Shown here piece by piece: positions 15,343-39,174 of a stretch of DNA of 64,000 nt; the first letter of the stretch is position 1, and the number at the start of each line of letters is the position of its first letter. The DNA is from Candidatus Omnitrophota bacterium. Lineage in GTDB: Bacteria > Omnitrophota > Gorgyraeia > Gygaellales > Profunditerraquicolaceae. The stretch spans positions 170,048 to 234,047 of the forward strand of contig QZKH01000003.1 in assembly GCA_003598025.1 (NCBI GenBank). Direction: 5' to 3'. Made by a program: the position numbers and the translations under genes. The notes below the pieces were generated by a model. The model was not told where the DNA came from and ran no database searches. It was given only the letters and a program-made list of their open reading frames with translations.

Positions 15343-15520
15343 TTGCACCCTATTTACTTAGCCCTTATCCGCGAGGCGTTACATTTTGATATAGGCAGGT
15401 CTTCTGACTACGGGTTTAACCTATTGGCTGCGCCTTCCCGGTATTACCAGTGGCATCTGCAGCTGTTTTACCCTTTACAGCGGCGGGACCGTGGCCGATT
15501 TTCACGGCCTTCCCTTTACC
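15343..15520 (-). promoter_or_regulatory. Cobalamin (AdoCbl) riboswitch aptamer
   Basis: Minus-sense RNA contains ...aauagguaaagggaaggccgugaaaaucggccacggucccgccgcuguaaagggu...gcagaugccacugguaauaccgggaaggcgcagcc...gucagaagaccugccua. It includes the B12-box GCCACUG, the GGGAAGGC core and the 3' GUCAGaAGACCUGCC element characteristic of RF00174. Confidence 0.8.
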
Positions 15521-15547
15521 TATTCAAAATTCCAAATTGTTACTTCT

Positions 15548-18143: not shown

Positions 18144-18647
18144 TCAGTATTCGATGCCTCTTCTTGCTTTCTTGCCTTTGCTGTAGTAGTGTTTTACTTC
18201 GCGGATTTCGCTTACTAAGTCAGCGGCTTTTATTATTTTGGGATGCGCATAGCGGCCGGTAAGGATGATTTCGCAATCTTTGGGCACGTTGTTAATACAG
18301 CTTAATACATCGGTAATGCGGATTAGCCCCAGGTTTATGGCGACGTTAATTTCATCCAGTATGATCACATCGTAGCACTTTTTATTTACAGCCTTTTTTA
18401 CGGCGTCAATCCCCTTTTTTGTAAAATCTATATCTTTCTGCGATGGCTGCCTGCACACAAAACATCTGCTGCCGAATTGCTCAACCTTGATATTTTTGTG
18501 TTTCTTTAACGCTTTAATCTCGCTGCAGGCCCTGCCTTTAAGAAATTGACAGAAGTAAACTTTTTTCCCTGCTCCGCTGGCACGTAACGCAAGCCCGAGC
18601 GCTGCCGTAGTTTTTCCTTTTCCATTTCCGGTATATACTTGTATCAT
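18144..18647 (-). CDS. btuR: Cob(I)yrinic acid a,c-diamide / corrinoid adenosyltransferase (CobO/BtuR)
   Basis: 167 aa; MIQVYTGNGKGKTTAALGLALRASGAGKKVYFCQFLKG is the classic CobA/BtuR P-loop. Confidence 0.85.
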   Translation of the reverse strand: MIQVYTGNGKGKTTAALGLALRASGAGKKVYFCQFLKGRACSEIKALKKHKNIKVEQFGSRCFVCRQPSQKDIDFTKKGIDAVKKAVNKKCYDVIILDEINVAINLGLIRITDVLSCINNVPKDCEIILTGRYAHPKIIKAADLVSEIREVKHYYSKGKKARRGIEY

Positions 18648-19108
18648 TTTGTTAAAATTTTATATCCTGATATTCCAAGCGTGCATAATATTGAGACTAT
18701 TACGCCGGCTATTAAAACCCCGGCGGCAATGGAGATAAAAGCGTATTTAAACCTTATCTTAAATAAAGATGCGGCGATTGCCCCTGTCCATGCCCCTGTC
18801 ATAGGAAGCGGCACGGCGACAAACAACATGAGGCCGATGGATTCATACTTCTGTATAAGTTCAGACTTCTTTTTTGTCCGCTCAAAGAGCCAGTCAAAGA
18901 AATTCTTCCATAACGCAAATTTACGCAATCTTGCCGATACAGGCTCTAATAGCAACAGTAGAGGTATAACAGGCAATAAGTTTCCTATTATAGATATCCA
19001 GAACACTTTAATCAGGGGAAGATTAAAAGATAGCCCTAATGGTATAGCTCCCCTTAATTCAGATACCGGCAAAGCCGCTAAAATAAGTACTTTTATTTCA
19101 TTAGTCAT
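18644..19108 (-). CDS. Small polytopic membrane protein (COG2426 / putative small multidrug-export family-like); first gene of the btuR-btuFCD unit
   Basis: 154 aa, 4 predicted transmembrane segments, ELRGAIPLG motif; 4-nt overlap with the btuR start. Family assignment is from memory only. Confidence 0.4.
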   Translation of the reverse strand: MTNEIKVLILAALPVSELRGAIPLGLSFNLPLIKVFWISIIGNLLPVIPLLLLLEPVSARLRKFALWKNFFDWLFERTKKKSELIQKYESIGLMLFVAVPLPMTGAWTGAIAASLFKIRFKYAFISIAAGVLIAGVIVSILCTLGISGYKILTK

Positions 19109-19184
19109 GTTCTTTTAGGACCGCTTATCCTGCTCATCAGGAATGTTATTTCTTTGTTTTTATTTGTGATCTGTGAACTATGAA

Positions 19185-19207
19185 CTCGCCTGCTTTCGGC
19201 AGGCGAG
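19185..19207 (-). terminator. Hairpin downstream of pcm (possible weak terminator)
   Basis: ctcgcctgc-tttcg-gcaggcgag lies 10 nt after the pcm stop. There is no clear U-tract and it is followed by the GAACTA motif. Confidence 0.3.
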
Positions 19208-19217
19208 AAGTGTTCCC

Positions 19218-19877
19218 TTAGCAGGAGAAACGATCTTCCTTAATCATCCCGTATTTACCTACCAGGGGGACAAATACGCAAGCGCAAACTTCGGTGGACT
19301 TAAGCGCTCCGTAAATTTTCTCAAAAGAAATTAGGGTTTGCCTGAAATTATCCCCAATGGGAATAATGAGCCTTCCGCCTTCTTTAAGTTGTTCACCTAA
19401 AGGCAGCGGAACCCGTGGCGCGGCCGCAGTGATTATTATCCTGTCAAAGGGAGCATTCTCAGGCCACCCTAAAGTCCCGTCATCGATCTTTACTTTAATA
19501 TTATCAATGTTGAGTTTTTTAAATACCTGTGTTGCCCGCTCAGCTAATACACCAATACGCTCAACCGTAAAAACTTCTTTGGCCAGCTGGGAAAGTATAG
19601 CCGCTTGATACCCTGAACCTGTCCCGATTTCCAGGATTTTCTCGTCCCCTGCAAGGTCAAGGCAGCTTGTCATAAGCGCTACCATGTAAGGCTGCGATAT
19701 AGTTTGGTCATTGCCTATAGGCAGCGGCGAATCTGCATATGCGCTGTCTTTAACATCATCGGGCACAAATTCATGCCGCGCCACTTTATAAAAAGCATCG
19801 AGCACCCGCTCATTATTTATCCCGCGGTTTATAAGCTGCTCTTCAACCATCCTGGCCCTTAATTTTTCCCAATCCAT
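19218..19877 (-). CDS. pcm: Protein-L-isoaspartate O-methyltransferase
   Basis: 219 aa; the SQPYMVA and EIGTGSGYQAA motifs. Confidence 0.85.
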   Translation of the reverse strand: MDWEKLRARMVEEQLINRGINNERVLDAFYKVARHEFVPDDVKDSAYADSPLPIGNDQTISQPYMVALMTSCLDLAGDEKILEIGTGSGYQAAILSQLAKEVFTVERIGVLAERATQVFKKLNIDNIKVKIDDGTLGWPENAPFDRIIITAAAPRVPLPLGEQLKEGGRLIIPIGDNFRQTLISFEKIYGALKSTEVCACVFVPLVGKYGMIKEDRFSC

Positions 19878-20539
19878 AACTCTCTCCAGATAAATTTAAT
19901 AAACCTGACCGTGTCAATAAAAGGGTTAATATTGCTTTTTTCTCCCGAATAAACAGTAGTTACCGGTATTGAGCCGATTTTAAAACCTAAACGCGCCGCC
20001 TTTATTATAATCTCCGACTCAGTTTCGTATTTCTTTGTACTAAAAGATATTTTTTCCAACAACCTTTTCTTTATCAGCCTGAAACCGCATTGCGTATCAG
20101 GTATTTTCTGCCTTGCTATCAGCGAAAGAAGCCATGACATAAACCTGTTTGTGGCTAATCTGATAAGAGGCATATTCTTCCTGTTGATCAGCCTGTTGCC
20201 GATGATCAAGTCGTAGTTATGTTCCAAAGCTTTGACAAAATGTGGAATTTCTTCCGGAAGGTGTTGGCCGTCGCCGTCCATGGTTATCACGGCATCGAAA
20301 TTGCCGTTTAGGGCATATTCAAACCCTTTAATCAGCGAAGCGCCTTTCCCCTGGTTTACTTCATTGTGCAAGACAGTTACGCCTGCCTGCATTGCCAGCT
20401 GGTAGGTATTATCGGTTGAGCCGTCATCTATTACTAACACGCTTATCCCGGGATAGGTTATTCTTTTTAATAGTCTGGCAATAACCTTTTCCTCGTTATA
20501 TGTAGGTATGATTACACAAATCCTATAAGCGGTCTTCAT
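19859..20539 (-). CDS. Family 2 glycosyltransferase (polyprenol-phosphate / DPM1-like)
   Basis: 226 aa; ICVIIPTYNEE...VIDDGSTDNT...DGDGQH carries the GT-A DXD motifs. Confidence 0.75.
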   Translation of the reverse strand: MKTAYRICVIIPTYNEEKVIARLLKRITYPGISVLVIDDGSTDNTYQLAMQAGVTVLHNEVNQGKGASLIKGFEYALNGNFDAVITMDGDGQHLPEEIPHFVKALEHNYDLIIGNRLINRKNMPLIRLATNRFMSWLLSLIARQKIPDTQCGFRLIKKRLLEKISFSTKKYETESEIIIKAARLGFKIGSIPVTTVYSGEKSNINPFIDTVRFIKFIWRELWIGKN

Positions 20540-21392
20540 CTTTCCAGAAGTACCTGAACATATACCACTGCTCGGGGTATTTTCGAATAAATTTCTCGAA
20601 TAATGATTTATAAATATTGATTATATTTTTTATATCAACTGCGTTATCGCCGGTTGCGGCATACTCAATTGGTTTCTCGATAGTTAAGGTAAAACTGTCA
20701 TTGGGGTTCCTAACCATAAAACCGGGTATTATTACTGCCCCGGTACGCAGGGAAAGCGCAGCCGGACCTTCGGGTAGGCAAGCCTGTTTATTAAAAAACT
20801 CTACAGGTATGCCTTTTCCTGTAAAATCCCTGTCTCCGACAAGAGCAAGCAGGTTATTGCCCCTTAAGGCATTAAGCGATTGCCTGACTGCTTTTTTAAG
20901 AGGGATAACCCTCATCCCTTTGCTCTCGCGCTGGAAATTAAAAAAATCATTTACTCTTTTATGCTTATGCTCAAGCGCGACCGCATACAAAGGATAGCCC
21001 ATAAGCGCAGTAACTACCCCGCCTAATTCCCAGTTCCCTAAATGCGCCGTCAGGACTATTGCCCCCTTTTTTCTCTTAATTGCCTCGTCAAAATTTTCAA
21101 TATTGATTATTTTTATGTTTTTTTCTATATATTGGCGGTTGAGTTTCGGAAAGCGGAAAAAATCAACAAGGTATTTTGCAAAGTTCCTGAACATTTCTCT
21201 GCGTATCACGGAAATTTCCCTGTCAGTTTTATCCGGAAAGATCACCTTCAAATTCCTGGTGACATTTTTTCTGTCTATATTAGCAAAGATATAATGCACA
21301 TCCGAGACAAATACTGCAAACTTATAAGCGACTTTTAAAGGCAGAAACAGGGCGATGAATTGACCGATGCGGTAAAATATATAATTAAACAT
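20523..21392 (-). CDS. LpxL/HtrB-family lipid A (lysophospholipid) acyltransferase
   Basis: 289 aa; LTAHLGNWELGG (H-x4-E/D) acyltransferase motif and overall Lip_A_acyltrans pattern. Confidence 0.7.
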   Translation of the reverse strand: MFNYIFYRIGQFIALFLPLKVAYKFAVFVSDVHYIFANIDRKNVTRNLKVIFPDKTDREISVIRREMFRNFAKYLVDFFRFPKLNRQYIEKNIKIINIENFDEAIKRKKGAIVLTAHLGNWELGGVVTALMGYPLYAVALEHKHKRVNDFFNFQRESKGMRVIPLKKAVRQSLNALRGNNLLALVGDRDFTGKGIPVEFFNKQACLPEGPAALSLRTGAVIIPGFMVRNPNDSFTLTIEKPIEYAATGDNAVDIKNIINIYKSLFEKFIRKYPEQWYMFRYFWKDEDRL

Positions 21393-22509
21393 TACAAAGG
21401 CTTAATATGTGTCTTGCGATATTCATGCTCGACTCAGGTTTAGATATCTTTTTAGCTGCGTTTGCAAGTTCCTTAAGTTTTTCAGGCGATGCAATCAGCT
21501 CTTCGACTGCAAGGTTTATTCTGTTTGCTTTATCAATCTTAATAGCTGCTTTATGTTCGGTTAAATAAGCTGTGTTGGAAGCCTCTTGCCCGGGGATGGG
21601 ATGAACGATTATCATCGGAATATGCTTGGATAAGGCTTCAGCAGTTGTTATGCCCCCGGGTTTTGTTATTAATACATCTGCAATACTCATCAGTTCGTTT
21701 ATATTGTTTGCGTACCCGAATAAAACGACTTTTTTACGGTATTTGTTAAGTTTTTTCTTTATTGTCCGGTAGAGCTTCTTGTTAGTCCCTGTTACGATAA
21801 TTTCCTGTATATCTTGATTTACATGTTCAAGAGATGATATTATGCTTTTAACAGGTCCGAGGCCCTGGCCTCCGCCCATAATAAGGGCAGTAAATTTATT
21901 GCTCTTAAGCCCGAGTTTGCTAAATACCTGGTCTTTGTTTACAGGCCGGTTGAAATCAGGGTCAAAAGGTATTCCAAAGGGCTTTATTTTTGAATGCGGG
22001 ACTCCTTTTTGCATAAGGCGTATGGATACCTCTTCGGAAGGCGTTATATAGGTGTTGACGTCGTCATAAACCCAATAAGCATGAGGTATATAATCTGTAA
22101 GTACGGCTATAAGAGGTATTGAAGAATGCGTTACCTTTTTATAGTCTGCTACCATGCCGCATGGAAAAGCCTGGGAGCAGACAACCGCATCCGGTTTGAA
22201 GCTGTTAAAAAGCTTTTCCAGCTTAGGCGAATTGAACTTATGTATCGACTCTTTTATCCTGGATATGCTTTTTGCAATCTTTTGGTTGTCGTATAAATAA
22301 CTCCAGATTGCCGGGGTCCTCTTTATTATCGCCATATAAAGGCGGTTAACTACCTTTTCTGATATGGGATTGGTGTAGTTAAAAGCGTTTATATTCAATA
22401 TTTCAGTTTCCGGCTCAAGCCGTTTTATAGACTTTTCTATAGCCTCTGTCGCGCAGCGGTGCCCTGACACCTCGGAGATATACATCAAGATGATTCTTTT
22501 TGCCGGCAT
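21385..22509 (-). CDS. MGDG-synthase/UgtP-like GT28 glycosyltransferase (diacylglycerol glycosyltransferase)
   Basis: 374 aa; N-terminal MGDG_synth-like region and a C-terminal GT28 C-domain (GGGQGLGP...). Confidence 0.65.
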   Translation of the reverse strand: MPAKRIILMYISEVSGHRCATEAIEKSIKRLEPETEILNINAFNYTNPISEKVVNRLYMAIIKRTPAIWSYLYDNQKIAKSISRIKESIHKFNSPKLEKLFNSFKPDAVVCSQAFPCGMVADYKKVTHSSIPLIAVLTDYIPHAYWVYDDVNTYITPSEEVSIRLMQKGVPHSKIKPFGIPFDPDFNRPVNKDQVFSKLGLKSNKFTALIMGGGQGLGPVKSIISSLEHVNQDIQEIIVTGTNKKLYRTIKKKLNKYRKKVVLFGYANNINELMSIADVLITKPGGITTAEALSKHIPMIIVHPIPGQEASNTAYLTEHKAAIKIDKANRINLAVEELIASPEKLKELANAAKKISKPESSMNIARHILSLCNV

Positions 22510-22511
22510 TA

Positions 22512-23678
22512 TCAGATTTTTCCTTCCTTATAAAGCTCGGTAAATACAGCGGATATTTGGGGGTGAAATTGCTTGCCTGCCAAGGTCTCAATCTCTTTTA
22601 CTGCCTCTTCGTTAGTCAGGCCTTCGTGATACGGCCTGTTTGTGGTCATGGCATCAAAAGAATCTGCCACGGAAATAATTGCAGCTATCAAAGGAATTTC
22701 TTCTCCTTTTAATCCCTCGGGATATCCGGTACCGTCATAGCGTTCATGATGGTATTTGACTCCCAAAATAGCATCTTCAAGCTCTCTTATCGGGATGAGG
22801 ATGTTAACACCGACAACAGGATGCGATTTAATGACTTTTCTTTCGTCATCATCCAGAGGACCCTTTTTATTTAAAATAGATTCCGGGATGCCTATTTTAC
22901 CGATGTCATGCAAGAGGCTTGCAATATGCAGATTTTCAATAAATTTATCATCAATTCTGAAATAGCTTTTTTCCATAAGCTTGCGTGCAATCTCAAGGCA
23001 AATACTGCTGACGCGCTCAGTGTGCCCGTGGGTGTAGTGGTCTTTAGCGTCGATTGCTGCGGCAAGCGCAATAGTCGTATGTATAAACAGCCGTTTTTCT
23101 CTCTGCAGCTGAAGCTCTAATTCTTTAAAAAGCTGGGCATTCCTGATAGCCATGGCAACATCTGAAGCCAAAGCGCTAAAAAAACTTAGCTCATCGCGGG
23201 AGAACTCTTTACCGTCTTTTTTATGGCCAAGCAGCAGGATGCCGAGCAGTTCATCCCTGTAGTAGCTCGGGATACAGGCAACAGCTTCAAATATCTCCAT
23301 CTGATATAAGGCGCTGTTTAAAAGCTCTTTGCTCGTAAAATCAAGCTCATTGCCCAGGACAGCATCTTTCGCTTCGCTATAAACTAATGAGCCGTTATTG
23401 AATATTTTTTTGTCTTCCCTGTTTATAAAAAATTTGATCAACGGATTATCGGAATCAAGGCGGGCAAAGCCTTCCGGTATTTTTATTCCGGCAGGGCCGC
23501 GGGAAACGGTTAAAACATAGCTGTCTTTATCTTTAACATGCAGCAAGATCCCCGCATGGCTGACGCTTACTTTTTGGACAAGCATGCGGATGATCAGCTT
23601 GAGAAGAAGCTCAGGCTCATGCACAAGGATCATATTCCTTGCTGCTTCTTCCAATTCTCTCTTATAATCTAAAGCCAT
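22512..23678 (-). CDS. GAF-domain HD-GYP phosphodiesterase (c-di-GMP)
   Basis: 388 aa; HD (HDIGKIGIP) and HHERYDGTGYP motifs after a GAF-like N-terminal domain. Confidence 0.8.
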   Translation of the reverse strand: MALDYKRELEEAARNMILVHEPELLLKLIIRMLVQKVSVSHAGILLHVKDKDSYVLTVSRGPAGIKIPEGFARLDSDNPLIKFFINREDKKIFNNGSLVYSEAKDAVLGNELDFTSKELLNSALYQMEIFEAVACIPSYYRDELLGILLLGHKKDGKEFSRDELSFFSALASDVAMAIRNAQLFKELELQLQREKRLFIHTTIALAAAIDAKDHYTHGHTERVSSICLEIARKLMEKSYFRIDDKFIENLHIASLLHDIGKIGIPESILNKKGPLDDDERKVIKSHPVVGVNILIPIRELEDAILGVKYHHERYDGTGYPEGLKGEEIPLIAAIISVADSFDAMTTNRPYHEGLTNEEAVKEIETLAGKQFHPQISAVFTELYKEGKI

Positions 23679-23693
23679 TTTTATGGGGGTGAC

Positions 23694-24056
23694 TTAGGAT
23701 AATTCTTTTAAAACAACTTTTTCCAATTCTTCCAGCCTTAGGGGCTTATGGATATAATCAGTTGCGCCAAATTCCTTACATTTATTGAATGATTCTTCTT
23801 CGTCAGGCTTTTTGCCGGTTACCATGATTACTTTAGTGGAAGGATTGATTTTTTTTATTTGCTTGAGCGTTTCTATGCCGTCAATGCCTTCCATTTTAAT
23901 ATCGAGCAGGATCAGCTGGGGCGGCGCTTCAGAGACGATTTTTAAAGCCTCTTCACCGCTTGCTGCAATCCCGACGTCAATTTTTCTTTTCTTAAAAAAA
24001 TTGGCGGCAAATTCCCTTACGTCCAATTCATCATCTACTATTAAAAGCCTTGGCAT
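23694..24056 (-). CDS. Single-domain response regulator (CheY-like receiver)
   Basis: 120 aa; LIVDDE...D(55)...K pattern. Confidence 0.8.
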   Translation of the reverse strand: MPRLLIVDDELDVREFAANFFKKRKIDVGIAASGEEALKIVSEAPPQLILLDIKMEGIDGIETLKQIKKINPSTKVIMVTGKKPDEEESFNKCKEFGATDYIHKPLRLEELEKVVLKELS

Positions 24057-24172
24057 CTTATCCTCGCTTATTTAAACTTATCCCGGAAACCGAAACAATC
24101 TTATCATAACAAATACGCTCAAACAAGTAGAAATAGAATAGTTCATGGTACATAGTTGATTGGTTAAGACTT

Positions 24173-26359
24173 TTACTCTGCTGTTGCAATTGGTAACTCA
24201 AGTATGAAACGCGTTCCGACCTTATAAGAAGATTCAAAAGCAATCCTGCCTTTATGAGTGTCGGTTATAATCTTTTTGATAACATACAAGCCAAGCCCTG
24301 TGCCTTTGCGCGATGAAGTTTTTGTAGTAAAAAACGGGGTAAATACCTTCTTAATGTTGTCTTCTTTTACCCCCATGCCGTTATCCTCGATGATCATTTC
24401 AAGGAAATCATCCTTAGGCTTAGCGCTTATAGTCAGTCTTCCCCTATAGTTTGGCTCATTCAGGGCAGCTTTGCGTTCGTTCGTGGCATCATAAGCATTA
24501 TCGATGAAGTTAAAAAATGCTTCCTGAAGCTGTACAAGATTACCTTTTATTTTAGGAGTATCTTTACTGTAGTTACGGATAATGTCAATTTCTGAAAGCT
24601 TGATTTTAAACTGTATCATATCAAGCGTAGCATCTAAAATCTGGTCAATGGTCAGCTCACCAAAATTATCTTCTCCCTTACGGGTATATTTAAGCATGCC
24701 TTTTACAACTTCGCCTCCCTGCATGACGTTGGCCTGGATCCTTTCAAGGGCATGTCCTACGCTTTTTATCATCTCCCGGACTTCCGGTGTGCAGTTAGCC
24801 GTATCTGTTAACTTTATAGTATCAATCGTATCCCCGGCAATAAGGGATAAAGCATAAAACCTGTTGTTTATTTGATGAGAAAGCCCGTCTGCCATGGTTC
24901 CGATTGTCGCCATTTTCTCAGCCTGGGCAACCTGTTCCTGCATCTCTTTTGTTTCCTCGTAGAATTGGGCGTTCTCAATAGCCAAAGCAGCCTGGCTAGC
25001 CAATACCTGGAAAACATTTAAGTCATCATGAGTGTATATTTCGCCGGACATCTTATCTCCAAGCACGACAAAACCGATAAATTTATCCTCAAGGAAGCTG
25101 GGAATGATTACAGTGGCTGTTAAAAGGCGCATATTTTCTTCCAGATGCGCATAGGTAATATCGTTTGTATCAAGCATCTTGCGTTTGATTTCGTCGTATA
25201 TTAATGGCTGCCTCCTGAAAACTATCCAGTTGACGAGCGGATTATCGGAACTTAATTTTGGAATGGGGATGCGGCCCTTATCTCTGCTTACCTGTAGCAT
25301 GTATTCATCGCTTTCCTGGTTATAAAGATAAATGGCGGCGTAAGAGATTTTTACGGTTTTAGTTACTATGTGCGTTATCAGGTCAAGGAGCTTTCTTAAG
25401 TTTCGGATACGGGTCATGCCAACCGAAGCCTGCTTTAATACATCCTGGTATCTTTTCTGCTCTCTTAAAAGCCTTGCTTCGGCTTTTCTTTCCAAATAAA
25501 TGTAGATAAACGGCCCGACTGTTGCCAAGCCTGCCATTAAACCTAATGGCGCAATCCACCAGCGCGTACCTAAATTTGTTATCAGCCATGTCCTGAACCA
25601 GACTACAAGCGCAAAAGGTAAACCAAGGACTATTGTATAAACAGCGATAAATGTTCCGGTCCTGCTGATAGCAACCCGGATATCCATTAGACGGTATTTG
25701 AGAATTGCATATGAGATAATAAGAGGGAAAGTTGTAAATAGTATTAATGGATAAGGTGGGAAATTTATATTAAAAGAAAGCAAAAAAGTGCTACCTCCTC
25801 CAGTAAATCCCATAACTGAGGCCAAAAATATATATTTTATTTGATTTGCTTTAAAAGCGGTTGTTTTTTTATATTCCCTCGATAGTAAATTTAATCCGTA
25901 AAGAACAATAAGAGAAAAATAGATAGCAAATAAATAATATCCAATGCCAGGCACTATGTAGTATTGGAATATTGATTTTGACGTTAAATCTTTTATATAT
26001 AGTGGAGTAAAGTTTAGTAAGAAAATTATCGAACTGAGTATTAAGACAATATTAAAAATAAGTTTAATTCTGCTGAGTTTTTGTAACTCAAGAAATACAA
26101 TTATAAAGCGTAACCATAAAAATGCAACAAGCATGCCAGAGATTTCAACAAACTTAAGAATTATAAAGCTCGCTTGCTTATTATCAGAATTTATGGCTAA
26201 AAAATAAAAAACACTCCAAAACGAAGCATTGATACATAGCATTGCCCAGGCATTATTGACAACACTTTTACGGTTTCTTAAATAAACCAGAATACCAATG
26301 CCAAAAACAGTAAAGAATCCTAATAAAGTTATTGTGTTAAAATAAAGTTTTGCTATCAA
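24173..26359 (-). CDS. Sensor histidine kinase with N-terminal 7TM sensor region, GAF domain, HisKA and HATPase domains
   Basis: 728 aa; about 7 N-terminal transmembrane helices, GAF-like middle domain, H-box DGLSHQINN, N/G boxes (DNGMGV..., GTGLGL). Confidence 0.8.
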   Translation of the reverse strand: MIAKLYFNTITLLGFFTVFGIGILVYLRNRKSVVNNAWAMLCINASFWSVFYFLAINSDNKQASFIILKFVEISGMLVAFLWLRFIIVFLELQKLSRIKLIFNIVLILSSIIFLLNFTPLYIKDLTSKSIFQYYIVPGIGYYLFAIYFSLIVLYGLNLLSREYKKTTAFKANQIKYIFLASVMGFTGGGSTFLLSFNINFPPYPLILFTTFPLIISYAILKYRLMDIRVAISRTGTFIAVYTIVLGLPFALVVWFRTWLITNLGTRWWIAPLGLMAGLATVGPFIYIYLERKAEARLLREQKRYQDVLKQASVGMTRIRNLRKLLDLITHIVTKTVKISYAAIYLYNQESDEYMLQVSRDKGRIPIPKLSSDNPLVNWIVFRRQPLIYDEIKRKMLDTNDITYAHLEENMRLLTATVIIPSFLEDKFIGFVVLGDKMSGEIYTHDDLNVFQVLASQAALAIENAQFYEETKEMQEQVAQAEKMATIGTMADGLSHQINNRFYALSLIAGDTIDTIKLTDTANCTPEVREMIKSVGHALERIQANVMQGGEVVKGMLKYTRKGEDNFGELTIDQILDATLDMIQFKIKLSEIDIIRNYSKDTPKIKGNLVQLQEAFFNFIDNAYDATNERKAALNEPNYRGRLTISAKPKDDFLEMIIEDNGMGVKEDNIKKVFTPFFTTKTSSRKGTGLGLYVIKKIITDTHKGRIAFESSYKVGTRFILELPIATAE

Positions 26360-27027
26360 TTACTATTTCTCCTACAAAATTGAAGAAAAGGTATAATCAT
26401 TGGTACGGTCTTTTTGTAGTGCAAATACTCATCACCAAACTTGATAAAAGACAATTTTTCCTCATAAATAGCTCTAATTATATACAATGGCGTATTAATA
26501 AATATAATTATAAAAAGCGCGTAAAATGCATTGGCAATCAACGATATGCCTATTAACTCAAAAATAATTCCTAAATAAATCGGATGCCTTATAAAACTAT
26601 AGGGACCAGTTTTAACACAAGAGTATTTTATTTCAGATTCATCTTCATTTACTAAATGTATCTTCCAATGTTCCCCTAAACTTTTGACAGACCAATATCT
26701 GATTACCCCTGCTAAAATAAATACTGAGATTCCGAACATACTAACCGCGAAATACTTAATACCGTTAGTGACAAAAAACTCAGCTATTACAACTAAACAT
26801 GTAACTAAGTACATAATTGAAGTAACTACCATTGTCCAGTCACCTTTGTACTTATATTTGTTTGTTTCCTTAGTTGTAAAAAAAGTTTCCCATACTCTCT
26901 CAAACATAATCAATACTGCAAAAATACTAAAAATTATTCCTCCTCTTGCCTCAGGGTAGAATATATTTAAAACTATTAATAGTACTGGAATTAATAAAAG
27001 AGAAAAAGCAATGAAAATAATAATCAT
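26356..27027 (-). CDS. ICMT/PEMT-superfamily membrane methyltransferase
   Basis: 223 aa; polytopic membrane protein with C-terminal ...GPYSFIRHPIYLG...E motif of isoprenylcysteine carboxyl methyltransferase-family enzymes. Very AT-rich gene; its stop overlaps the histidine kinase start by 4 nt. Confidence 0.6.
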   Translation of the reverse strand: MIIIFIAFSLLLIPVLLIVLNIFYPEARGGIIFSIFAVLIMFERVWETFFTTKETNKYKYKGDWTMVVTSIMYLVTCLVVIAEFFVTNGIKYFAVSMFGISVFILAGVIRYWSVKSLGEHWKIHLVNEDESEIKYSCVKTGPYSFIRHPIYLGIIFELIGISLIANAFYALFIIIFINTPLYIIRAIYEEKLSFIKFGDEYLHYKKTVPMIIPFLQFCRRNSN

Positions 27028-27797
27028 AAGTCTTCCAAATATTTAGGCGATCCAATAATCTTTAAAGTATCACGATAATATCTTGTATATAATGGTTTTT
27101 TTGATATTTTTAAGTTTTTTAACAATTTTGATAGTTCTTGGTCACCAAGCTTGAATTCAACAGCTTTTGAATCGCCAAAAACTCCAAAAGTTTCCAATTT
27201 TATTTTTGATACCTTCATATCTTTAAGAGAATATGTTGTGTGGTACTCATATTTAACTTTTTCTTTTAATGGTTTTTTTATTTTGAACTTTAATATCCAC
27301 TCATTGTTAGAGTAAGCATCTACTTCAATAAATTTGTCAGTTTTAGCAAAATTTGCCACCGTTAACTGTTTATAATGAGGATAACCTGTAATTATATTGC
27401 CATGCTCAATTGCCAAATCAGTACTTTGGGCTACCGAAATAGGGATGAATCCGAATTTTTTTGTCACATATTTTATGGGAAAGGATATAAAAGGAATGTT
27501 AAACTTAGTTGCATGGCCAACAATGAGCGAAAAAGTCAATTCAGTAAAGCGGCCGACCGGTGTATCATAAAAATTCAATATTGTAATACACATTAGGCTT
27601 CGTCCGGGTAATAGTACAAGTGGTTTTAGCTTTTTTGTACCAATAATTTCAGCAGCTGTTTTTGATGATATTGTAAATAAGGCATTGATAGCTTCGCACT
27701 TATATTTAATAGGGATATCAATTAGTAAATCTCTAACTTTTACTTTTTTTTCAACATTTATCTTGAACGAATCCAGATCTACTTTTAAATTTTTCAC
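27024..27797 (-). CDS. Hypothetical Lys-rich protein (possibly acetoacetate-decarboxylase-like fold; weak)
   Basis: 257 aa, no transmembrane segment, very AT-rich; 4-nt overlaps with both neighbours. The family call is tentative and from memory only. Confidence 0.3.
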   Translation of the reverse strand: MKNLKVDLDSFKINVEKKVKVRDLLIDIPIKYKCEAINALFTISSKTAAEIIGTKKLKPLVLLPGRSLMCITILNFYDTPVGRFTELTFSLIVGHATKFNIPFISFPIKYVTKKFGFIPISVAQSTDLAIEHGNIITGYPHYKQLTVANFAKTDKFIEVDAYSNNEWILKFKIKKPLKEKVKYEYHTTYSLKDMKVSKIKLETFGVFGDSKAVEFKLGDQELSKLLKNLKISKKPLYTRYYRDTLKIIGSPKYLEDL

Positions 27798-27799: not shown

Positions 27800-29023
27800 T
27801 CAGTCTCCTTTTAAATTGTTTTTTAACTTAATCATTAGATCAATCAAACAATCTATCTGTTCTTTTGTATGTGTTGCTTTGACTGTGAGCCTTAATCTGG
27901 CTTTTCCCCAGGGTACTGCTGGCCAGCGCACGCATGGTGCCAAAATTCCGTTTTCAAGTAACTTTTTAGAAAACTCTATTGCTTTTTCTTCTTTTCCTAT
28001 TAAAACCGGGATGATTTGGGTTTCGCTGTTAAGCGTATCAAACCCTGATTTTGTCAGATTAGTTTTAAGATAGCTGACATTTGACCATAGGTTTTCTCTA
28101 AGAGAATGATTATTTTTTGCTTCTTTTACAGCTGCAATCAGGGCAGCAGCGATTGAAGGTGGTATTGGCGCAGAAAAAATATAGGAACGCGCGCTTATTC
28201 TTAAATAATCAATCAGGGCTTTTGTGCCGCAAACAAATCCGCCTACACCGCCAAACGATTTAGTGAAAGTCCCCATTGTGATATCAATATCGTTTTCATC
28301 AAGCCCAAAATGCTCGGCAGTTCCCCTGCCGTTTTTACCCAAAACTCCGGATGCGTGCGCATCATCTACCATAACAATTGAATTATATTTTTTCGCAAGC
28401 TCAACAATTCCCGGCAACGGAGCGATGTCACCGTCCATGCTGAATACACCGTCAGTAACGATCATTTTCCGTATTTTTTTTAATTTCTTAAGTTTTCCTT
28501 CGAGGTCCTTCATGTCCTTATGTTTATATACAACGATTTGGGCATGGCTTAGCCTGCAGCCGTCAATTATACTTGCGTGGTTTAATTCATCGCTTAAGAT
28601 TATTCTTTTCCCCTGGAAAGGAGCTGGTATCAGCCTGCCTGCTATCTTATGAAGGCCGCTTACAGCATCCATTACTGCAGGAATTGTTCCGGTATTTGCC
28701 ATATAACCGGTAGAAAAAGTTATTGCGGATTTGCTATTCTTAAAATCTGCTATTGCCTTTTCAAGCTCTACCTGGATATCGGTATTCCCGGAAACAAGCC
28801 GCGAACCACCGGAGCCAACTCCGTATTTGTCAATTGCTTCCTTTGCTGCCTTTTTTAGAAGCTCGCTATTGGCCAGGCCTAAATAATCATTTGAGCAGAA
28901 AATCAGCACTTTTTTACCGTTAGCGACAACTTCTAATGATGTTGGTGAGCCGGATATTAAACTGATATCAGGGTAAAGCCCAAAATCACGGATATTTTTA
29001 AGTATGTTTTCTATATTCTCCAT
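27800..29023 (-). CDS. PLP-dependent alpha-oxoamine synthase (BioF/KBL/serine-palmitoyltransferase/CqsA family)
   Basis: 407 aa; GGSRLVSGN, DDAHASGVLGKNGRG and the PLP-lysine motif TFTKSFGGVGGF. Confidence 0.8.
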   Translation of the reverse strand: MENIENILKNIRDFGLYPDISLISGSPTSLEVVANGKKVLIFCSNDYLGLANSELLKKAAKEAIDKYGVGSGGSRLVSGNTDIQVELEKAIADFKNSKSAITFSTGYMANTGTIPAVMDAVSGLHKIAGRLIPAPFQGKRIILSDELNHASIIDGCRLSHAQIVVYKHKDMKDLEGKLKKLKKIRKMIVTDGVFSMDGDIAPLPGIVELAKKYNSIVMVDDAHASGVLGKNGRGTAEHFGLDENDIDITMGTFTKSFGGVGGFVCGTKALIDYLRISARSYIFSAPIPPSIAAALIAAVKEAKNNHSLRENLWSNVSYLKTNLTKSGFDTLNSETQIIPVLIGKEEKAIEFSKKLLENGILAPCVRWPAVPWGKARLRLTVKATHTKEQIDCLIDLMIKLKNNLKGD

Positions 29024-29030
29024 TTATAAA

Positions 29031-30032
29031 TTATATTACCGGCGCTTCCGGCAGCCAGGTCTCAAAGCCGTATTTAGCAGCTATATTGGCTATTTCTTCA
29101 AGGTTGTCAGGGTTGATATTATCACCTAAAGAATAATTATTGAATCTTGATTCTTTTGCCAGCAAAAGCGTTTCGGCAAAAGGCGCGTTCACGACATTTC
29201 TAGGCAGGCATTTATTAATAAAAATATCTGCCTCGAAAGGCAGCTTAATCAATCCCGTCCTTATAATAGTGATGTCATTTCTTAATTTTTTGTTATTAAC
29301 CATGCAAAACGGCGCAGAGGCATCAAAGATTATACAGCCGGGTTTTGGAATATCAAGATTAATGATTGTGCTTAATGGCGCGTTGCCGATAGCAACGATT
29401 ACATCAGACGCAGAGGTTAATTCGGAAAGGTTATCTTCTATATTTACGGTAAGCCCGCCATATTGGGAAGCAAGTTCTGTTTTCAGCCTGATGACAGATT
29501 CAATCTCGGTATCGTTAAGCGTTATGTCAGAAGTAAAATCAATTATTTTTTTTGTAAAAAGCTTACCTACTGCCGTACCTGCCCCGACTACAGAAAACTT
29601 CATTTTAGCAAGGTCAATCCCCCTGCTCTTGACAGTCCTGTAAACAGATTCAACAATCGACCATGCGAGCAAAGTATTGCCCGTTGTCATCGGCATGCGT
29701 ACTTTTTTTAACAAAGTAACTGCGCTGGTAGACTCGACAAGGTTGTATCTCTCCAGGCCGATCATTTCTATATCTAAGTTCTTAGAAATATCTTCATCGG
29801 AAAGGATAGAATTTAAAATCAAGGCTTCTCCCTGAAGGAGAAGGTCTTTAGGCGGTGTGGACGGGATAACCAGGTAGCTGAGGATATCCTGTGAACCAAA
29901 AATTATCCTTTTGGGCTTGAGAATTTTGTAAATCGGTGTCTTTTTTAATGCAGGGTTGAATAAATCCCAAAACCAGCCTTTTTTAAGGTATTTTATTGTC
30001 CGGGGATGGATAATAAACGCAAATGACCTCAT
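29031..30032 (-). CDS. Acyl-ACP reductase (AAR)-family NAD(P)-dependent reductase, paralog 1
   Basis: 333 aa. Aligns by eye along its whole length with cyanobacterial AAR: FIIHPRT vs GLIGHLTS; TTGNTLLAWSIV...SVVGAGTAVGK vs TTGNTHTAYVIC...AVVGATGDIGS; CIIFDASAP vs CVLIDGGYP; C-terminal APFAETLLLAKE...YSLG...AKYGFE vs ACFAEAMLLEFE...FSWG...VRHGFQ. Confidence 0.65.
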   Translation of the reverse strand: MRSFAFIIHPRTIKYLKKGWFWDLFNPALKKTPIYKILKPKRIIFGSQDILSYLVIPSTPPKDLLLQGEALILNSILSDEDISKNLDIEMIGLERYNLVESTSAVTLLKKVRMPMTTGNTLLAWSIVESVYRTVKSRGIDLAKMKFSVVGAGTAVGKLFTKKIIDFTSDITLNDTEIESVIRLKTELASQYGGLTVNIEDNLSELTSASDVIVAIGNAPLSTIINLDIPKPGCIIFDASAPFCMVNNKKLRNDITIIRTGLIKLPFEADIFINKCLPRNVVNAPFAETLLLAKESRFNNYSLGDNINPDNLEEIANIAAKYGFETWLPEAPVI

Positions 30033-30033
30033 T

Positions 30034-31122
30034 TCATCTCCAAAGCAATATCCTGCTTTTAGATTTTTTCTTTATGTTTGCCTTAATCCTGCTTATCTCA
30101 ATGTCAGATATCGGTTTCTCCTTGCTTGTGAGGCTGTCAATTTCAAATCCGTGTTTTGCCCCAAGCCTCAAAATTTCTTTGACCTTAAAAGCATCAAAAT
30201 CTTTTCCCAGGGAATAATCCTCGAATTTCTTCTCCAGCGCCAAAATCATCGGTTCGGCCATGCATGGATAACACAATCCTTCGGGAAGGCCAAAATCAAA
30301 ATTGAATTTTACGTCTCCGGGAGGCTTAACTGTTACTCCGTCAATAACCAGCACGTCGTTGCGAATGCTCGGAAGGATGCGCCGCGGGTAAGAAGCATCA
30401 AAGATAAGGCTGCCCGGCTCAACCTTGCTTATATCAAATTCTGCAGGTATGCGGTTAGTCGCAACAATTATAATTTTAGTTTTATTTAAAATGGAGTTTA
30501 TGTCAAATTTACTATGTATTTTTGCTCTTTTTTCTTTGGGGATGCCGGCTAGTGCAATATTTAATTTATCTACATTGTGCGCGCTGACATAAGTCCCGCG
30601 CACGAAATGGGAAAGTATATCAAGGCAGTACTTTCCGACGCTTGAAGTCCCTCCCAGGATCAGGATGTAAGTATCATCTAGGGGGATATCCATTAAATCA
30701 GCGCCTCTTAATATTGCTTCGGGTATAGTAGAAAGAGTATAATTGGAGCCGGTTGTCATCGGGCAAGGAATGATCTTTTTTAAATCCGCTCCTTTATTGC
30801 CGCTGAATGCCGCATAAGCAGTCAACCCTATCAATTTAGGCGAAATCGAACTTGCAAATTTAAGTGTGTTAATGACTGCCTTCATCACTTTTGTAGGGCT
30901 TAAGGAAACCATCTGTTCCATAAGCAGCGGGCACATTACGAGTGCGCCTTTTGCTGTCCTGCCTAAATCTGAATATAACCCTCTGATTTCGGAAGCCTTA
31001 AAAGGCTGCATCCATTCCAACACCTTTTTTACTAATGGCCGAGGTTTATTTTTCATCCCCGGCTCATATTTATATAACAGCTCTTCGTTAGTCGGATGGA
31101 TTATGAGGGTGTAGTCATACAT
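30034..31122 (-). CDS. AAR-family reductase, paralog 2 (start revised to the internal ATG at 31120-31122; the ORF-track start at 31236 adds a spurious W/R-rich 38 aa)
   Basis: From MYDYTLIIHPTNEEL... onward it parallels paralog 1 and AAR (TTGSNYTL...LILGGTSSVGK; LIFDASYP; PCMAEPMILALEKKFEDYSLGKD...AKHGFE). The revised start gives an 8-nt ATGTATGA overlap with the upstream SRPBCC stop. Confidence 0.6.
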   Translation of the reverse strand: MYDYTLIIHPTNEELLYKYEPGMKNKPRPLVKKVLEWMQPFKASEIRGLYSDLGRTAKGALVMCPLLMEQMVSLSPTKVMKAVINTLKFASSISPKLIGLTAYAAFSGNKGADLKKIIPCPMTTGSNYTLSTIPEAILRGADLMDIPLDDTYILILGGTSSVGKYCLDILSHFVRGTYVSAHNVDKLNIALAGIPKEKRAKIHSKFDINSILNKTKIIIVATNRIPAEFDISKVEPGSLIFDASYPRRILPSIRNDVLVIDGVTVKPPGDVKFNFDFGLPEGLCYPCMAEPMILALEKKFEDYSLGKDFDAFKVKEILRLGAKHGFEIDSLTSKEKPISDIEISRIKANIKKKSKSRILLWR

Positions 31123-31561
31123 TTGAGTTCTCCGCCTTATTCTTAATAGCCAGCACCATACCGGTGAGCCCCCGCTCAGCTTTTTTCTTAAGGACTGAAC
31201 CAACATACTCTTCCAGGATGGGTATTCCCCAGTCAAAATCAGCTTTTAAGGTCAGTTTGCTGCCGTCATGCCATTCCTTTACGTGCCAAATCCCCTGATA
31301 GCTTTGGTAGTAACCCTCGACCATATTAAATTTAATTATTCCTGCAGGTTCATCTATATTGTCTTCTTCCTTCCAGTTTACCGGAGCGCCTTCAATCTCA
31401 GTTTCCCATGAAGTAATAAATTTGGTATCGGATAGAGATTTAATGACCTTAAGGTTTTTAACGTCACGCATAAAAGAAGGGTATGATTCCATATCCCTAA
31501 GTATTTCAAATACTTTTTCTTTCGGTTTCTTTATTACGCAAGATGCTTCAATAGTTACCAT
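31115..31561 (-). CDS. SRPBCC-superfamily protein (polyketide cyclase/dehydrase / lipid-binding START-like)
   Basis: 148 aa; MVTIEASCVIKKPKEKVFEILRDMESYPSFMRDVK...W is the usual SRPBCC N-terminal pattern. Confidence 0.5.
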   Translation of the reverse strand: MVTIEASCVIKKPKEKVFEILRDMESYPSFMRDVKNLKVIKSLSDTKFITSWETEIEGAPVNWKEEDNIDEPAGIIKFNMVEGYYQSYQGIWHVKEWHDGSKLTLKADFDWGIPILEEYVGSVLKKKAERGLTGMVLAIKNKAENSNV

Positions 31562-31566: not shown

Positions 31567-31812
31567 TTATATAAGACTTTTTTCTGCGCGTTCTTCCTCT
31601 GTTTTGCGCCTGTCTTTTTTTCCGCTTTCATGATATTCCAGTTTATCCTTAATCCACTTTTCTATGTACTTTTTGTGGAACCGCCAGTCAGCGCCGATTT
31701 TGAACGCCGGTATCCTGCCGTCTCGAGCATAACGATGCACAGTCAGTGGATGCAAGTTCAAATAATCTGCAACTTCTTTTGCTGTAAGGATTTCCTTATC
31801 TTTTTTTGCCAT
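31567..31812 (-). CDS. Excisionase/MerR-like helix-turn-helix DNA-binding protein
   Basis: 81 aa; LTAKEVADYLNLHPLTVHRYARDGRIPAFKIGADWRF matches the excisionase-family HTH consensus; basic C-terminal tail. Confidence 0.6.
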   Translation of the reverse strand: MAKKDKEILTAKEVADYLNLHPLTVHRYARDGRIPAFKIGADWRFHKKYIEKWIKDKLEYHESGKKDRRKTEEERAEKSLI

Positions 31813-31895: not shown

Positions 31896-32575
31896 GGACC
31901 GTTTCCTTCCAACCCTCTATCCCGCTAGGTGTTATAAAGGAAGTGTCCTGCTTTCTTTAGCCTTTATTCGGTGAATTTATCTAAGCAAATCAAGCCTTCT
32001 AAAGGATTTGTTTTACTATGATAGAAATGATAGCTGCTCCATAGATAATCATTGGGGCTAACAACGATCCCTGCCCTTACAGGATTATTATGGATGTATT
32101 CAATGCAGGAAAGTATATAATCGTAGCCAGTAATGACGTTACTTTTAAATCTGCCTTGCCAAACATGTCCCGTATAGCCGTATTTTTCACGGAATTTAAA
32201 GCTGTAGGAAAGTTCAATTGCATGCATTATTTTTGAAATGTTTATATTGCAAGAGGGCTCTATAATTAGATGCGGATGCGTGTCCATCAAAACAAGCGAA
32301 TATACCTTAAACCCAAATCTTTCTTTAAATTTGGATAACGTTTTTAGGAAAATTATTTTATCTTCATCTGTACGCAAAACATATTGACGGTTATTTCCCC
32401 TAATACAAATGTGGTATATTGCTGATGTAAAATATATGCGCTTATGTTGTGTCATATTGCCTCCTTCCACATTAGTAGACGAAGGAAACATGATATTCTA
32501 ACTGAATAAGAATGCTTTAGGGGGACACTTCCTTTGTAACACCTAGCGGGATAGAGGGTTGGAAGGAAACGGTCC
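31896..32575 (-). mobile_element. REPtron: RAYT gene flanked by 53-bp inverted REP sequences
   Basis: 31896-31948 (ggaccgtttccttccaaccctctatcccgctaggtgttataaaggaagtgtcc) and 32523-32575 are reverse complements with 1 mismatch and flank the Y1 transposase gene. Confidence 0.7.
31964..32491 (-). CDS. REP-associated tyrosine transposase (RAYT; IS200/IS605-like Y1 HUH transposase)
   Basis: 175 aa (true start possibly M13); HUH motif THPHLII, catalytic Tyr region WSSYHFY, N-terminal YHICIRGNNRQ. Matches the TnpA_REP pattern. Confidence 0.75.
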   Translation of the reverse strand: MFPSSTNVEGGNMTQHKRIYFTSAIYHICIRGNNRQYVLRTDEDKIIFLKTLSKFKERFGFKVYSLVLMDTHPHLIIEPSCNINISKIMHAIELSYSFKFREKYGYTGHVWQGRFKSNVITGYDYILSCIEYIHNNPVRAGIVVSPNDYLWSSYHFYHSKTNPLEGLICLDKFTE

Positions 32576-39128: not shown

Positions 39129-39174
39129 TATTGCCTCCTCTTATTTTTTATCTATCAAAAGATTAGCCGGCCTA

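Follow-up and report, generated by a model that had tools for sequence, protein, structure and literature searches.

In the Rpf system of Xanthomonas, a lipid-derived molecule from neighbouring genes is combined with a polytopic membrane kinase and a receiver coupled to an HD-GYP domain. In the CqsA/CqsS, LqsA/LqsS and PhcB/PhcS systems, an enzyme of the 8-amino-7-oxononanoate-synthase-like (AONS) family or a methyltransferase is encoded beside a kinase with several transmembrane (TM) helices, which senses its lipophilic product. Here, we describe a gene cluster that recalls both arrangements in a 64,000-nucleotide stretch of DNA (the window; positions 170,048 to 234,047 of contig QZKH01000003.1, assembly GCA_003598025.1) from a Candidatus Omnitrophota bacterium. 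In this cluster, lipid-type genes precede a 7TM-GAF histidine kinase, a stand-alone receiver (REC), a GAF-HD-GYP protein predicted to be a cyclic di-GMP (c-di-GMP) phosphodiesterase, and three genes for putative glycolipid enzymes, namely, a GT28 glycosyltransferase, an LpxL/PatA-family acyltransferase and a GT2 glycosyltransferase (the triad). Omnitrophota have not been brought into culture; they are often ultra-small and may depend on a host. To our knowledge, nothing is known about their signalling and envelope lipids, and we know of no ligand for the HisKA_7TM domain. The literature on Omnitrophota glycolipids, Omnitrophota c-di-GMP and HisKA_7TM yielded no description of this cluster.

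We tentatively read the region as a modular Omnitrophota supercluster, in which a lipid-sensing kinase circuit is joined to c-di-GMP signalling and to the glycolipid triad. The supercluster would run from an HTH_17 leader gene through a variable lipid/acyl cassette, the kinase, the receiver and the GAF-HD-GYP protein to the triad, and in some cases on to pcm and a small membrane protein (Table 1). The cassette type of this genome would be the one composed of AONS, acyl-acyl carrier protein (ACP)-reductase-like, acetoacetate-decarboxylase-like (ADC-like) and ICMT genes. In the proposed circuit, the 7TM domain would bind, within the membrane, a hydrophobic and probably methylated product or intermediate from the adjacent ADC-like and ICMT enzymes, and the kinase would then phosphorylate the receiver. 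The receiver would act on the GAF-HD-GYP protein, the pair working as a split RpfG-type regulator that changes c-di-GMP levels. This signalling would be coupled to an acylated glycosyl-diacylglycerol-type envelope lipid or lipoglycan anchor, with the GT28 enzyme glycosylating the lipid, the PatA-like enzyme acylating it and the GT2 supplying a polyprenyl-phosphate sugar. The ligand, the phosphotransfer, the hydrolysis of c-di-GMP, the glycolipid product and the regulation of the triad are the parts of this scheme that we infer.

Results

The kinase and its adjacent lipid genes

The observations concern domain content, the tight packing of the genes, synteny statistics, the co-inheritance of sensor and cassette, and a break in GC content. 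Domain calls come from Pfam/NCBIfam scans of the open reading frames (ORFs) of the window, and about 165 related loci (numbered L###) were compared in total. A GT28-anchored set comprised 80 Omnitrophota genomes, the closest 80 of 563 matches, onto which the window proteins were mapped by tblastn and ORF-level blastp; a kinase-anchored set comprised 79 loci from metagenome contigs; and, for an island-side set, homologues of the AONS enzyme and of the 257-aa ADC-like protein were placed in their genomic context. The scans confirmed the domains that an original prediction, made from the sequence of the window, had assigned to the seven genes from the kinase to pcm.

The kinase matched HisKA_7TM (PF16927) over residues 12-227 with 55.3 bits against a gathering score of 28.6. 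Seven hydrophobic segments lie in residues 1-225 and two more in residues 229-287, while GAF and HATPase_c (80.6 bits) were matched by Pfam in the remainder. Pfam HisKA was unmatched; the putative phospho-acceptor is H495 (in the motif GLSHQINNRF), a residue that does not vary among 11 homologues.

Five further loci, which represent at least three lineages, keep the ADC-like gene, ICMT and the 7TM kinase together, and ICMT was the next gene after the ADC-like gene in every locus examined. The order AONS, 257-aa protein, ICMT, kinase recurs in L084/L131 and L166. In L081, from an unclassified bacterium, AONS, a radical SAM gene, an ORF, a 255-aa protein, ICMT and the 7TM kinase are followed by unrelated genes. 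L164, from Berkelbacteria of the candidate phyla radiation (CPR), holds a 260-aa protein, ICMT and the 7TM kinase with no adjacent AONS, and in L165 a 260-aa protein and ICMT have the 7TM kinase a few genes downstream. The sensor of the window (residues 1-225) is 63% identical to that of L166, 52-56% to L084, 49-51% to L081 and 42% to L164, compared with 21-33% to other Omnitrophota kinases. For the rest of the protein (residues 226-728) the relationship is reversed, with 56-81% identity to other Omnitrophota kinases and 16-36% to L081; the cytoplasmic part is 25-27% identical to those of L081 and L164. Among 77 kinases, 7TM identity was 32.9% in pairs sharing the class of upstream gene and 26.2% in the remaining pairs. 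With cytoplasmic identity regressed out, sharing the class added 6.6 points (p ~5e-4 by label permutation), in a statistic that ignores phylogeny. By these comparisons, it is supported that the 7TM sensor tracks the cassette and not the lineage, and the tie between the lipid island and the kinase is well supported.

The GC content of the window changes at the same boundary. A 2.1-kb segment (25685-27797) that contains exactly the ADC-like gene, ICMT and the part of the kinase gene coding for residues 1-225 has a GC content of 0.28-0.30 and a third-codon-position GC (GC3) of 0.24-0.26. The remainder of the kinase gene has 0.42-0.45 and the window as a whole 0.41, and the composition changes abruptly near 25,690 and 27,800. 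By part, GC and GC3 are 0.30 and 0.24 for the ADC-like gene and 0.284 and 0.236 for the 7TM-coding part, and GC is 0.29 for ICMT. The break within the kinase gene is also present, along with the three-part unit, in four other lineages (L084, L166, L081 and L164), one of them a CPR bacterium. Low GC as a by-product of hydrophobic amino acids was rejected, because the soluble ADC-like gene has an equally low GC3 and the segment coding for TM helices 8 and 9 of the kinase has a normal GC content. Judging from composition and alignment, the ADC-like gene, ICMT and the 7TM-coding part are read as a low-GC unit that was gained by horizontal transfer and joined in frame to a transmitter already resident, and the segment looks like a mobile unit that fuses in this way to resident kinases. 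The link that had been predicted between the signalling module and the upstream lipid island is thus upheld by the conserved trio, by a sensor that tracks the island and by a GC break at the sensor boundary.

The upstream part of the cassette has a normal GC content (0.40-0.42), and the same genes are found in L084, whereas all 80 GT28-anchored loci lack the cassette. The longest ORF of the acyl-ACP-reductase-like gene next to SRPBCC (30034-31236, TTG start) would overlap the SRPBCC gene by 122 nt; since its homologues in L091 and L084 are about 362 aa long, the true start is probably near 31122, with an overlap of about 8 nt. The AONS enzyme scored 443.6 against the BioF model TIGR00858, above the cut-off of 426.45, and failed three serine-palmitoyltransferase models (392.5 against 640, 335.7 against 500 and 279.6 against 670). 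With the autoinducer-synthase model NF005526 (CqsA type) it reached 181.1 bits, below the cut-off of 428.

The 257-aa protein belongs to a rare family (7 clusters among 5.8 billion proteins), whose profile gave nothing significant against PDB sequences. An AlphaFold2 model built from a seven-sequence alignment (pLDDT 78.9, pTM 0.80, low confidence around residues 97-113) was searched against the PDB with Foldseek, and the top 19 matches were all ADC-like (E 1.5e-9 to 8e-8, probability 1.00, TM-score 0.5-0.67). On the strength of this model, the protein is assigned an ADC-like (beta-cone) fold. Some ADC-like enzymes are pyruvate-aldehyde aldolase-dehydratases, and such a role would fit the neighbouring acyl-ACP-reductase-like genes. 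That the protein might be a diverged form of the PilZ-thioesterase that occupies the same slot in L075 was rejected (hhalign probability 0.2%). Five hydrophobic segments were found in the ICMT protein. The original prediction of a 4-nt overlap between ICMT and the kinase was correct: the junction reads ATTGA, the TTG start of the kinase lies 8 nt after an AGGAGA Shine-Dalgarno sequence, and the start is backed by a relative with ATG at the same position and by the aligned N-termini of homologues. From this junction, the translation of ICMT is taken to be coupled to that of the kinase.

In sister loci, other lipid-type genes occupy the slot upstream of the kinase. Such a gene stands directly before the kinase in 39 of 55 kinase-anchored loci. 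Upstream genes in the GT28-anchored loci with a kinase include, by Pfam, acyl-ACP-reductase-like proteins, FabA, NAD_binding_4 reductases, PlsC and CrtI-like amine oxidases, and also radical SAM enzymes, S-adenosylmethionine (SAM)-dependent methyltransferases and PilZ-thioesterase fusions. With acyl-modifying genes recurring directly upstream, occupation of the slot is not random. Many kinase-anchored cassettes are full sets of the type II fatty acid synthase/polyketide synthase (FAS/PKS)-like kind (FabG, KAS, FabA, KAS, KAS). On the 1.87-Mb contig of L120 (588-17637), AAR-like (acyl-ACP-reductase-like), FabG, KAS, FabA, KAS, KAS/CLF-like, CrtI-like oxidase, NAD_binding_4 and nitroreductase genes precede the same block of kinase, receiver, HD-GYP, GT28, LpxL and GT2, as is also the case in L118, L122, L146 and L103; this type of cassette recalls aryl-polyene or flexirubin clusters. 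PilZ fused to a 4HBT thioesterase lies directly upstream of the 7TM kinase in L075 (5299-6069) and L142 (5478-6233), and shorter PilZ ORFs occur in L098, L119 and L129. The fusions possibly represent a c-di-GMP effector acting on acyl-thioester release, and in these sister clusters they would link c-di-GMP with acyl chemistry.

A single metagenomic contig (L129, 1898-12121) carries three tandem 7TM kinases among ICMT-family, PilZ and methyltransferase genes, an arrangement that suggests arrays of sensor units.

The receiver, the HD-GYP protein and the glycolipid triad

The receiver is directly after the kinase in 42 of 70 kinase-anchored loci, and the full unit of kinase, receiver and HD-GYP is found in 27 of 48. 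Within the GT28-anchored set, a receiver precedes the HD-GYP gene in 17 of 67 loci; it also occurs without the kinase, as in L013, where it comes after a secretin gene. The HD-GYP motifs LLHDIGK and HHERYDGTGYP are intact in the translation. Since the separate receiver and the HD-GYP protein match positions 1-113 and 158-356, respectively, of the fused REC-HD-GYP model NF053512, together they look like a split RpfG. The HD-GYP gene is directly upstream of GT28 in 60 of 70 GT28-anchored loci, with a median gap of 5 nt, and it is from this synteny that we infer a coupling of c-di-GMP signalling to the glycolipid genes. Thus, the proposal that signalling is wired to glycolipid enzymes is retained as regards the position of the HD-GYP gene before the triad, and as regards regulation it is a deduction from gene order.

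An LpxL-like gene followed GT28 in 75 of 75 GT28-anchored loci, and GT2 came next in 70 of 70. By gene order, GT28, LpxL/PatA-like and GT2 are therefore described here as an invariant triad at the core of Omnitrophota. More than 120 Omnitrophota protein clusters match the GT28 protein with 62-67% identity; its best PDB match is a processive diacylglycerol beta-glucosyltransferase (140 bits), followed by plant MGD1, and it scored 243.6 bits against the UgtP equivalog NF010135, below the cut-off of 500. In the acyltransferase, the HX4(D/E) motif is HLGNWE (residues 117-122). The best PDB match of this protein is mycobacterial PatA (88 bits, against 51 bits for LpxM), and it stays below the cut-offs of TIGR02207 (89.9 against 297.8), PRK08419 for Campylobacter-type LpxL (156.1 against 248) and NF005919 for PatA (157.1 against 209). 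The top NCBIfam matches of the GT2 are AglJ, PpgS and dolichyl-P-hexose transferase and its top PDB matches are DPMS, ArnC and GtrB, with scores below the equivalog cut-offs for PpgS (98.6 against 370) and ArnC (60.4 against 529). No hydrophobic segment was found in the GT2, which is thus without the C-terminal TM helices of DPMS, ArnC and GtrB.

In the 80 GT28-anchored loci, neither AONS nor the ADC-like gene nor ICMT was found. Because the triad occurs without them in all 80, it appears to be independent of the lipid island of the window. Thus, co-occurrence across genomes, on which the original prediction depended, holds for the kinase-receiver-HD-GYP unit and for HD-GYP with the triad and fails for the island genes with the triad. 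The original prediction had also counted pcm as part of the module. Its identity is clear (it is also above the cut-off of TIGR00080, with 231.2 against 159), but it follows GT2 in only 31 of 62 loci and is therefore better regarded as a facultative passenger. Sm_multidrug_ex stands after GT2 or pcm in about 43 of 62 loci and might conceivably be a flippase for the polyprenyl-phosphate sugar.

Gene junctions and surroundings

The block had been described as contiguous and co-directional, with overlaps of 8-19 nt. All the long ORFs and real genes of the window are on the minus strand, so co-directionality is uninformative; contiguity goes beyond chance, because the arrangement recurs in many other genomes. 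The overlaps hold for the last three junctions (GT28/LpxL 8 nt, LpxL/GT2 17 nt and GT2/pcm 19 nt), while the other three are gaps (kinase/receiver 116 nt, receiver/HD-GYP 15 nt and HD-GYP/GT28 2 nt). RNA structure in the 116-nt gap was not significant (z = 0.43). In relatives, this gap (24057-24172) is an insertion site that holds an AbiEii-type toxin-antitoxin in L002 and L072 and unannotated ORFs in L085, L089 and L102, which suggests that the part with the receiver, HD-GYP and triad can be transcribed on its own. No intrinsic terminators were found by consensus scan in the intergenic gaps of 17.5-34.5 kb. The fold of 19109-19225, which includes the hairpin listed in Table 1, has z = -3.58, with 0 of 200 shuffles as good; the hairpin is unique in the window and may either mark where a transcript ends or stabilise the RNA.

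In 32 loci, the cluster begins at its 5' side with the HTH_17 gene, with Lpd/LipB before it and any module after it (HD-GYP in 12, AAR-like in 6, GT28 in 3, KAS in 3, and others). As it heads the cluster in these loci whatever comes next, we regard it as a conserved leader gene. A role as excisionase of the island was rejected, since it also heads clusters without the island. A promoter-like TTGACA-17-TATACA was seen upstream of it by direct reading of the sequence. The insertion between LipB and HTH_17 that carries the transposase and the methyltransferase (31964-33288) is absent at this place in the 80 related genomes.

TABLE 1 Features of the cluster and its borders, with positions in the window
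Feature	Position	Strand	Evidence or remark
Class I methyltransferase	32575-33288	(-)	Between LipB and HTH_17
RAYT (REP-associated tyrosine transposase)	31964-32491	(-)	Between LipB and HTH_17
HTH_17 (excisionase/MerR-like) small DNA-binding protein	31567..31812	(-)	Pfam HTH_17, 58 bits
SRPBCC	31115-31561	(-)	Pfam/NCBIfam; upstream part of cassette (27800..31561)
Acyl-ACP-reductase-like protein	30034-~31122	(-)	Pfam/NCBIfam
Acyl-ACP-reductase-like protein	29031-30032	(-)	Pfam/NCBIfam
AONS, BioF/Kbl-family pyridoxal phosphate-dependent acyltransferase	27800-29023	(-)	Pfam/NCBIfam
ADC-like 257-aa protein	27024..27797	(-)	AlphaFold2 + Foldseek; no Pfam match
ICMT/PEMT-family integral-membrane methyltransferase	26356..27027	(-)	Pfam ICMT 55.6 bits, PEMT 43.3 bits
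7TM-GAF-HATPase_c histidine kinase	24173-26359	(-)	HisKA_7TM + GAF + HATPase_c
Kinase residues 1-225, variable 7TM sensor	25685..26359	(-)	HisKA_7TM; low-GC segment
Kinase residues 226-728: two conserved TM helices, GAF, dimerisation/His-box, HATPase_c	24173..25684	(-)	Pfam
Stand-alone receiver (REC) response regulator, 120 aa	23694..24056	(-)	Response_reg 102 bits; no output domain
GAF-HD-GYP protein, predicted c-di-GMP phosphodiesterase	22512..23678	(-)	HD_5 123.7 bits, HD, GAF
GT28 MGDG-synthase/UgtP-like lipid glycosyltransferase	21385..22509	(-)	MGDG_synth 89.9 bits, Glyco_tran_28_C 50.1 bits
LpxL/PatA-family acyltransferase, N-terminal membrane anchor	20523..21392	(-)	Lip_A_acyltrans (PF03279) 180.5 bits
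Short soluble GT2, polyprenyl-phosphate-sugar-synthase-like	19859..20539	(-)	Glycos_transf_2 106.7 bits
pcm, protein-L-isoaspartate O-methyltransferase	19218..19877	(-)	PCMT; NF001453 260.8 against 188
9-bp GC-rich perfect hairpin	19186..19206	(-)	Just after pcm stop; without U-tract
Sm_multidrug_ex small membrane protein	18644..19108	(-)	PF06695 148.9 bits

Both flanks are housekeeping in nature, and the upstream one holds rpoA/L17, leuB/CD-like genes, Mdh, Lpd and LipB. Within it, a PilT/T2SSE-type ATPase gene (38082-39128) lies between the genes for the small and large subunits of an aconitase/isopropylmalate isomerase (37579-40446), and the ORF sizes and order of this stretch (?417 ?348 ?166) are repeated in many related loci. 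The downstream flank contains CobO, a BtuF-like binding protein, ABC components, a cobalamin riboswitch and a TonB-dependent receptor. The riboswitch (15377-15538, Rfam, 97 bits) is upstream of a Diphthami_syn_2-family gene, the TonB-dependent receptor and TonB. It was the sole Rfam match and is outside the region, and no tRNA genes were found. The B12 uptake/salvage block that it forms with CobO and the BtuF-like gene is directly downstream of the cluster and is kept in most related loci.

Discussion

Alternative explanations

Several observations weigh against a single circuit that runs from lipid cassette to triad. The linkage of its two halves is facultative, because the triad with HD-GYP mostly occurs without the kinase and cassette, and the island with the kinase also occurs without the triad. 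A close homologue of the 7TM kinase was found in only 8 of 59 GT28-anchored loci, and L081 and L164 have the island and kinase without the triad; within the kinase-anchored set, GT28 and LpxL lie within six genes in 15 of 37 loci. The GT28-anchored sample, being the closest 80 of 563 matches, is biased towards relatives, and the covariation of sensor and cassette was measured, as stated above, with no account of phylogeny. Since genes are inserted in the kinase/receiver gap of relatives, transcription of the block may be divided over several units; consensus scans for promoters and terminators over 17.5-34.5 kb counted no more sites than expected from shuffled sequence and therefore do not define transcripts. 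No GGDEF or PilZ gene was found in the window by domain scans or by motif regex on the six-frame translation, and consequently no c-di-GMP effector for the triad was identified. Finally, the substrates of the triad are guesses, because its three enzymes are below every NCBIfam equivalog cut-off.

One alternative is that the neighbouring modules are independent, with the triad made up of housekeeping envelope enzymes (for example, for lipid A late acylation, an ArnC-like undecaprenyl-phosphate-sugar synthase for lipopolysaccharide modification, and a membrane glycolipid synthase), HD-GYP a general c-di-GMP enzyme that happens to share their operon, and the HTH_17-to-HD-GYP slot an insertion hotspot for kinase-bearing cassettes. 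The universal triad, the kinase and island in unrelated contexts, and the signs of mobility (the GC break and the transposase and methyltransferase inserted next door) all agree with this, as do the equal scores of the LpxL-like protein for Campylobacter-type LpxL and PatA (156 and 157 bits) and an outer membrane, whose presence is shown by the TonB-dependent receptor. We nevertheless consider independence somewhat unlikely. Diverse cassettes always enter the same slot, between HTH_17 and receiver/HD-GYP/GT28, in a constant orientation and with gaps of 0-20 nt; the transmitter is conserved while sensors are swapped, which points to a resident signalling chassis and not to random landing; and HD-GYP is consistently close to GT28. 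Quite unlikely, in our view, is a system like quorum sensing, where the cassette would make a diffusible lipophilic autoinducer, the 7TM kinase would be its receptor, REC/HD-GYP would lower c-di-GMP and the glycolipid would be a downstream output. For the autoinducer, candidates would be an amino- or hydroxy-ketone derived from AONS (compare CqsA) and a methyl ester (compare PhcB), and the hypervariable sensor would reflect co-evolution of signal and receptor in the manner of pherotypes. The 7TM part is indeed hypervariable relative to the transmitter and covaries with the neighbouring biosynthetic genes; an AONS-family enzyme is near a multi-TM kinase; methyltransferases directly precede the kinase (ICMT here and SAM-dependent methyltransferases in 11 loci); and the output is a receiver with HD-GYP. 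However, the AONS enzyme is far below the autoinducer-synthase cut-off, the strictly conserved core is the ADC-like and ICMT pair and not AONS (which is not adjacent in L164), and many sister cassettes are large type II FAS/PKS-like sets, with three KAS and desaturases, more typical of structural lipids or pigments.

The original prediction had gone further and proposed that, should the upstream product be a sphingoid-like base, the acyltransferase and the two glycosyltransferases would complete a glycosphingolipid-like pathway. In such a pathway, AONS would be a serine palmitoyltransferase, the LpxL-family enzyme would N-acylate the sphingoid base, and GT28 and GT2 would glycosylate it. Serine palmitoyltransferases do fall within the AONS family, and the genes downstream, in the same orientation, do include one acyltransferase and two glycosyltransferases. 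Yet the enzyme passes the BioF cut-off, its matches to the three serine-palmitoyltransferase models are weak and below their cut-offs, the triad is kept without AONS, the ADC-like gene and ICMT in all 80 loci, and the AONS island occurs without the triad in L081. In addition, no homologue of bacterial ceramide synthase or reductase was seen among the cluster genes in Pfam scans, and GT28 is nearest to diacylglycerol-using enzymes. We consider this pathway very improbable and have abandoned it.

Weighing these explanations, we retain, tentatively, the modular supercluster in which a lipid-sensing kinase circuit is joined to c-di-GMP and the triad. It offers a concrete circuit (lipid cassette to 7TM kinase, to receiver/HD-GYP, to glycolipid operon) and a way in which a sensor kinase may gain a new specificity, as the sensor domain would arrive in company with the presumed producers of its ligand. 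The ADC-like and ICMT partners would indicate where to seek a ligand of HisKA_7TM, and the GT28-PatA-like-GT2 triad is a candidate for the pathway by which the phylum makes a core glycolipid of its envelope. A wider generalization, which we think unlikely to hold in full, is that Omnitrophota and at least one CPR bacterium carry mobile cassettes of a lipid-signal maker and its 7TM sensor, which recombine in frame onto resident transmitters. Each would act as a private, pherotype-like sensor of a signal or lipid state and, in Omnitrophota, feed a split REC/HD-GYP switch controlling a phylum-wide acylated-glycolipid operon.

Comparison with known systems

The GT28 protein shares with UgtP/YpfP and plant MGD1 the architecture of MGDG_synth plus a GT28 C-domain, and these are its best matches of solved structure. 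It differs from UgtP in its score relative to the equivalog cut-off, and its host is a diderm without lipoteichoic acid. The triad as a whole is similar to the mycobacterial phosphatidylinositol mannoside pathway (PimA, PatA and Ppm1/PpgS) in having a GT-B glycosyltransferase, an acyltransferase near PatA and a GT2 like polyprenyl-phosphate-sugar synthases. Here, however, the glycosyltransferase is a GT28 of the MGDG-synthase/UgtP type predicted for diacylglycerol, instead of a GT4 acting on phosphatidylinositol; there is no phosphatidylinositol synthase; and all triad scores are below equivalog cut-offs.

In aryl-polyene (APE) clusters, a type II FAS/PKS-like cassette is followed by the ApeD acyltransferase and the ApeJ glycosyltransferase, and the acyl chain is placed onto a lipid anchor (PMC8253772; bioRxiv 10.1101/2020.12.19.423268). 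The L120-type KAS/FabG/FabA/KAS/KAS and CrtI-like genes upstream of the triad are similar in the logic of gene order. In contrast to APE clusters, the cassette of the window is without KAS, the triad is conserved even without a cassette, no LolA/RND export genes were seen, and a two-component/HD-GYP module is interposed.

Among signalling systems, the locus resembles Cqs, Lqs and Phc in that AONS, the ADC-like gene and ICMT are directly upstream of the kinase. It departs from them in an AONS enzyme that scores below the autoinducer-synthase cut-off, in its ADC-fold and ICMT-family partners, which are missing from those systems, and in its output, which is HD-GYP here and LuxO or PhcR there. 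With RpfC/RpfG/RpfF it has in common the lipid enzymes nearby, the membrane kinase and the REC plus HD-GYP, known here from the genes. The differences are that REC is a separate 120-aa protein and the HD-GYP protein has an N-terminal GAF; that the kinase is not hybrid, with no HPt/REC hybrid or crotonase-type RpfF in any cluster gene; and that the sensor is a 7TM domain (PF16927). Because it fails defining features of each, the locus is not a member of the Rpf/diffusible signal factor (DSF), Cqs, Lqs or Phc systems. In its working, by analogy, it would be most like Rpf/DSF, in that a lipid signal would be passed by a membrane kinase to an output through HD-GYP.

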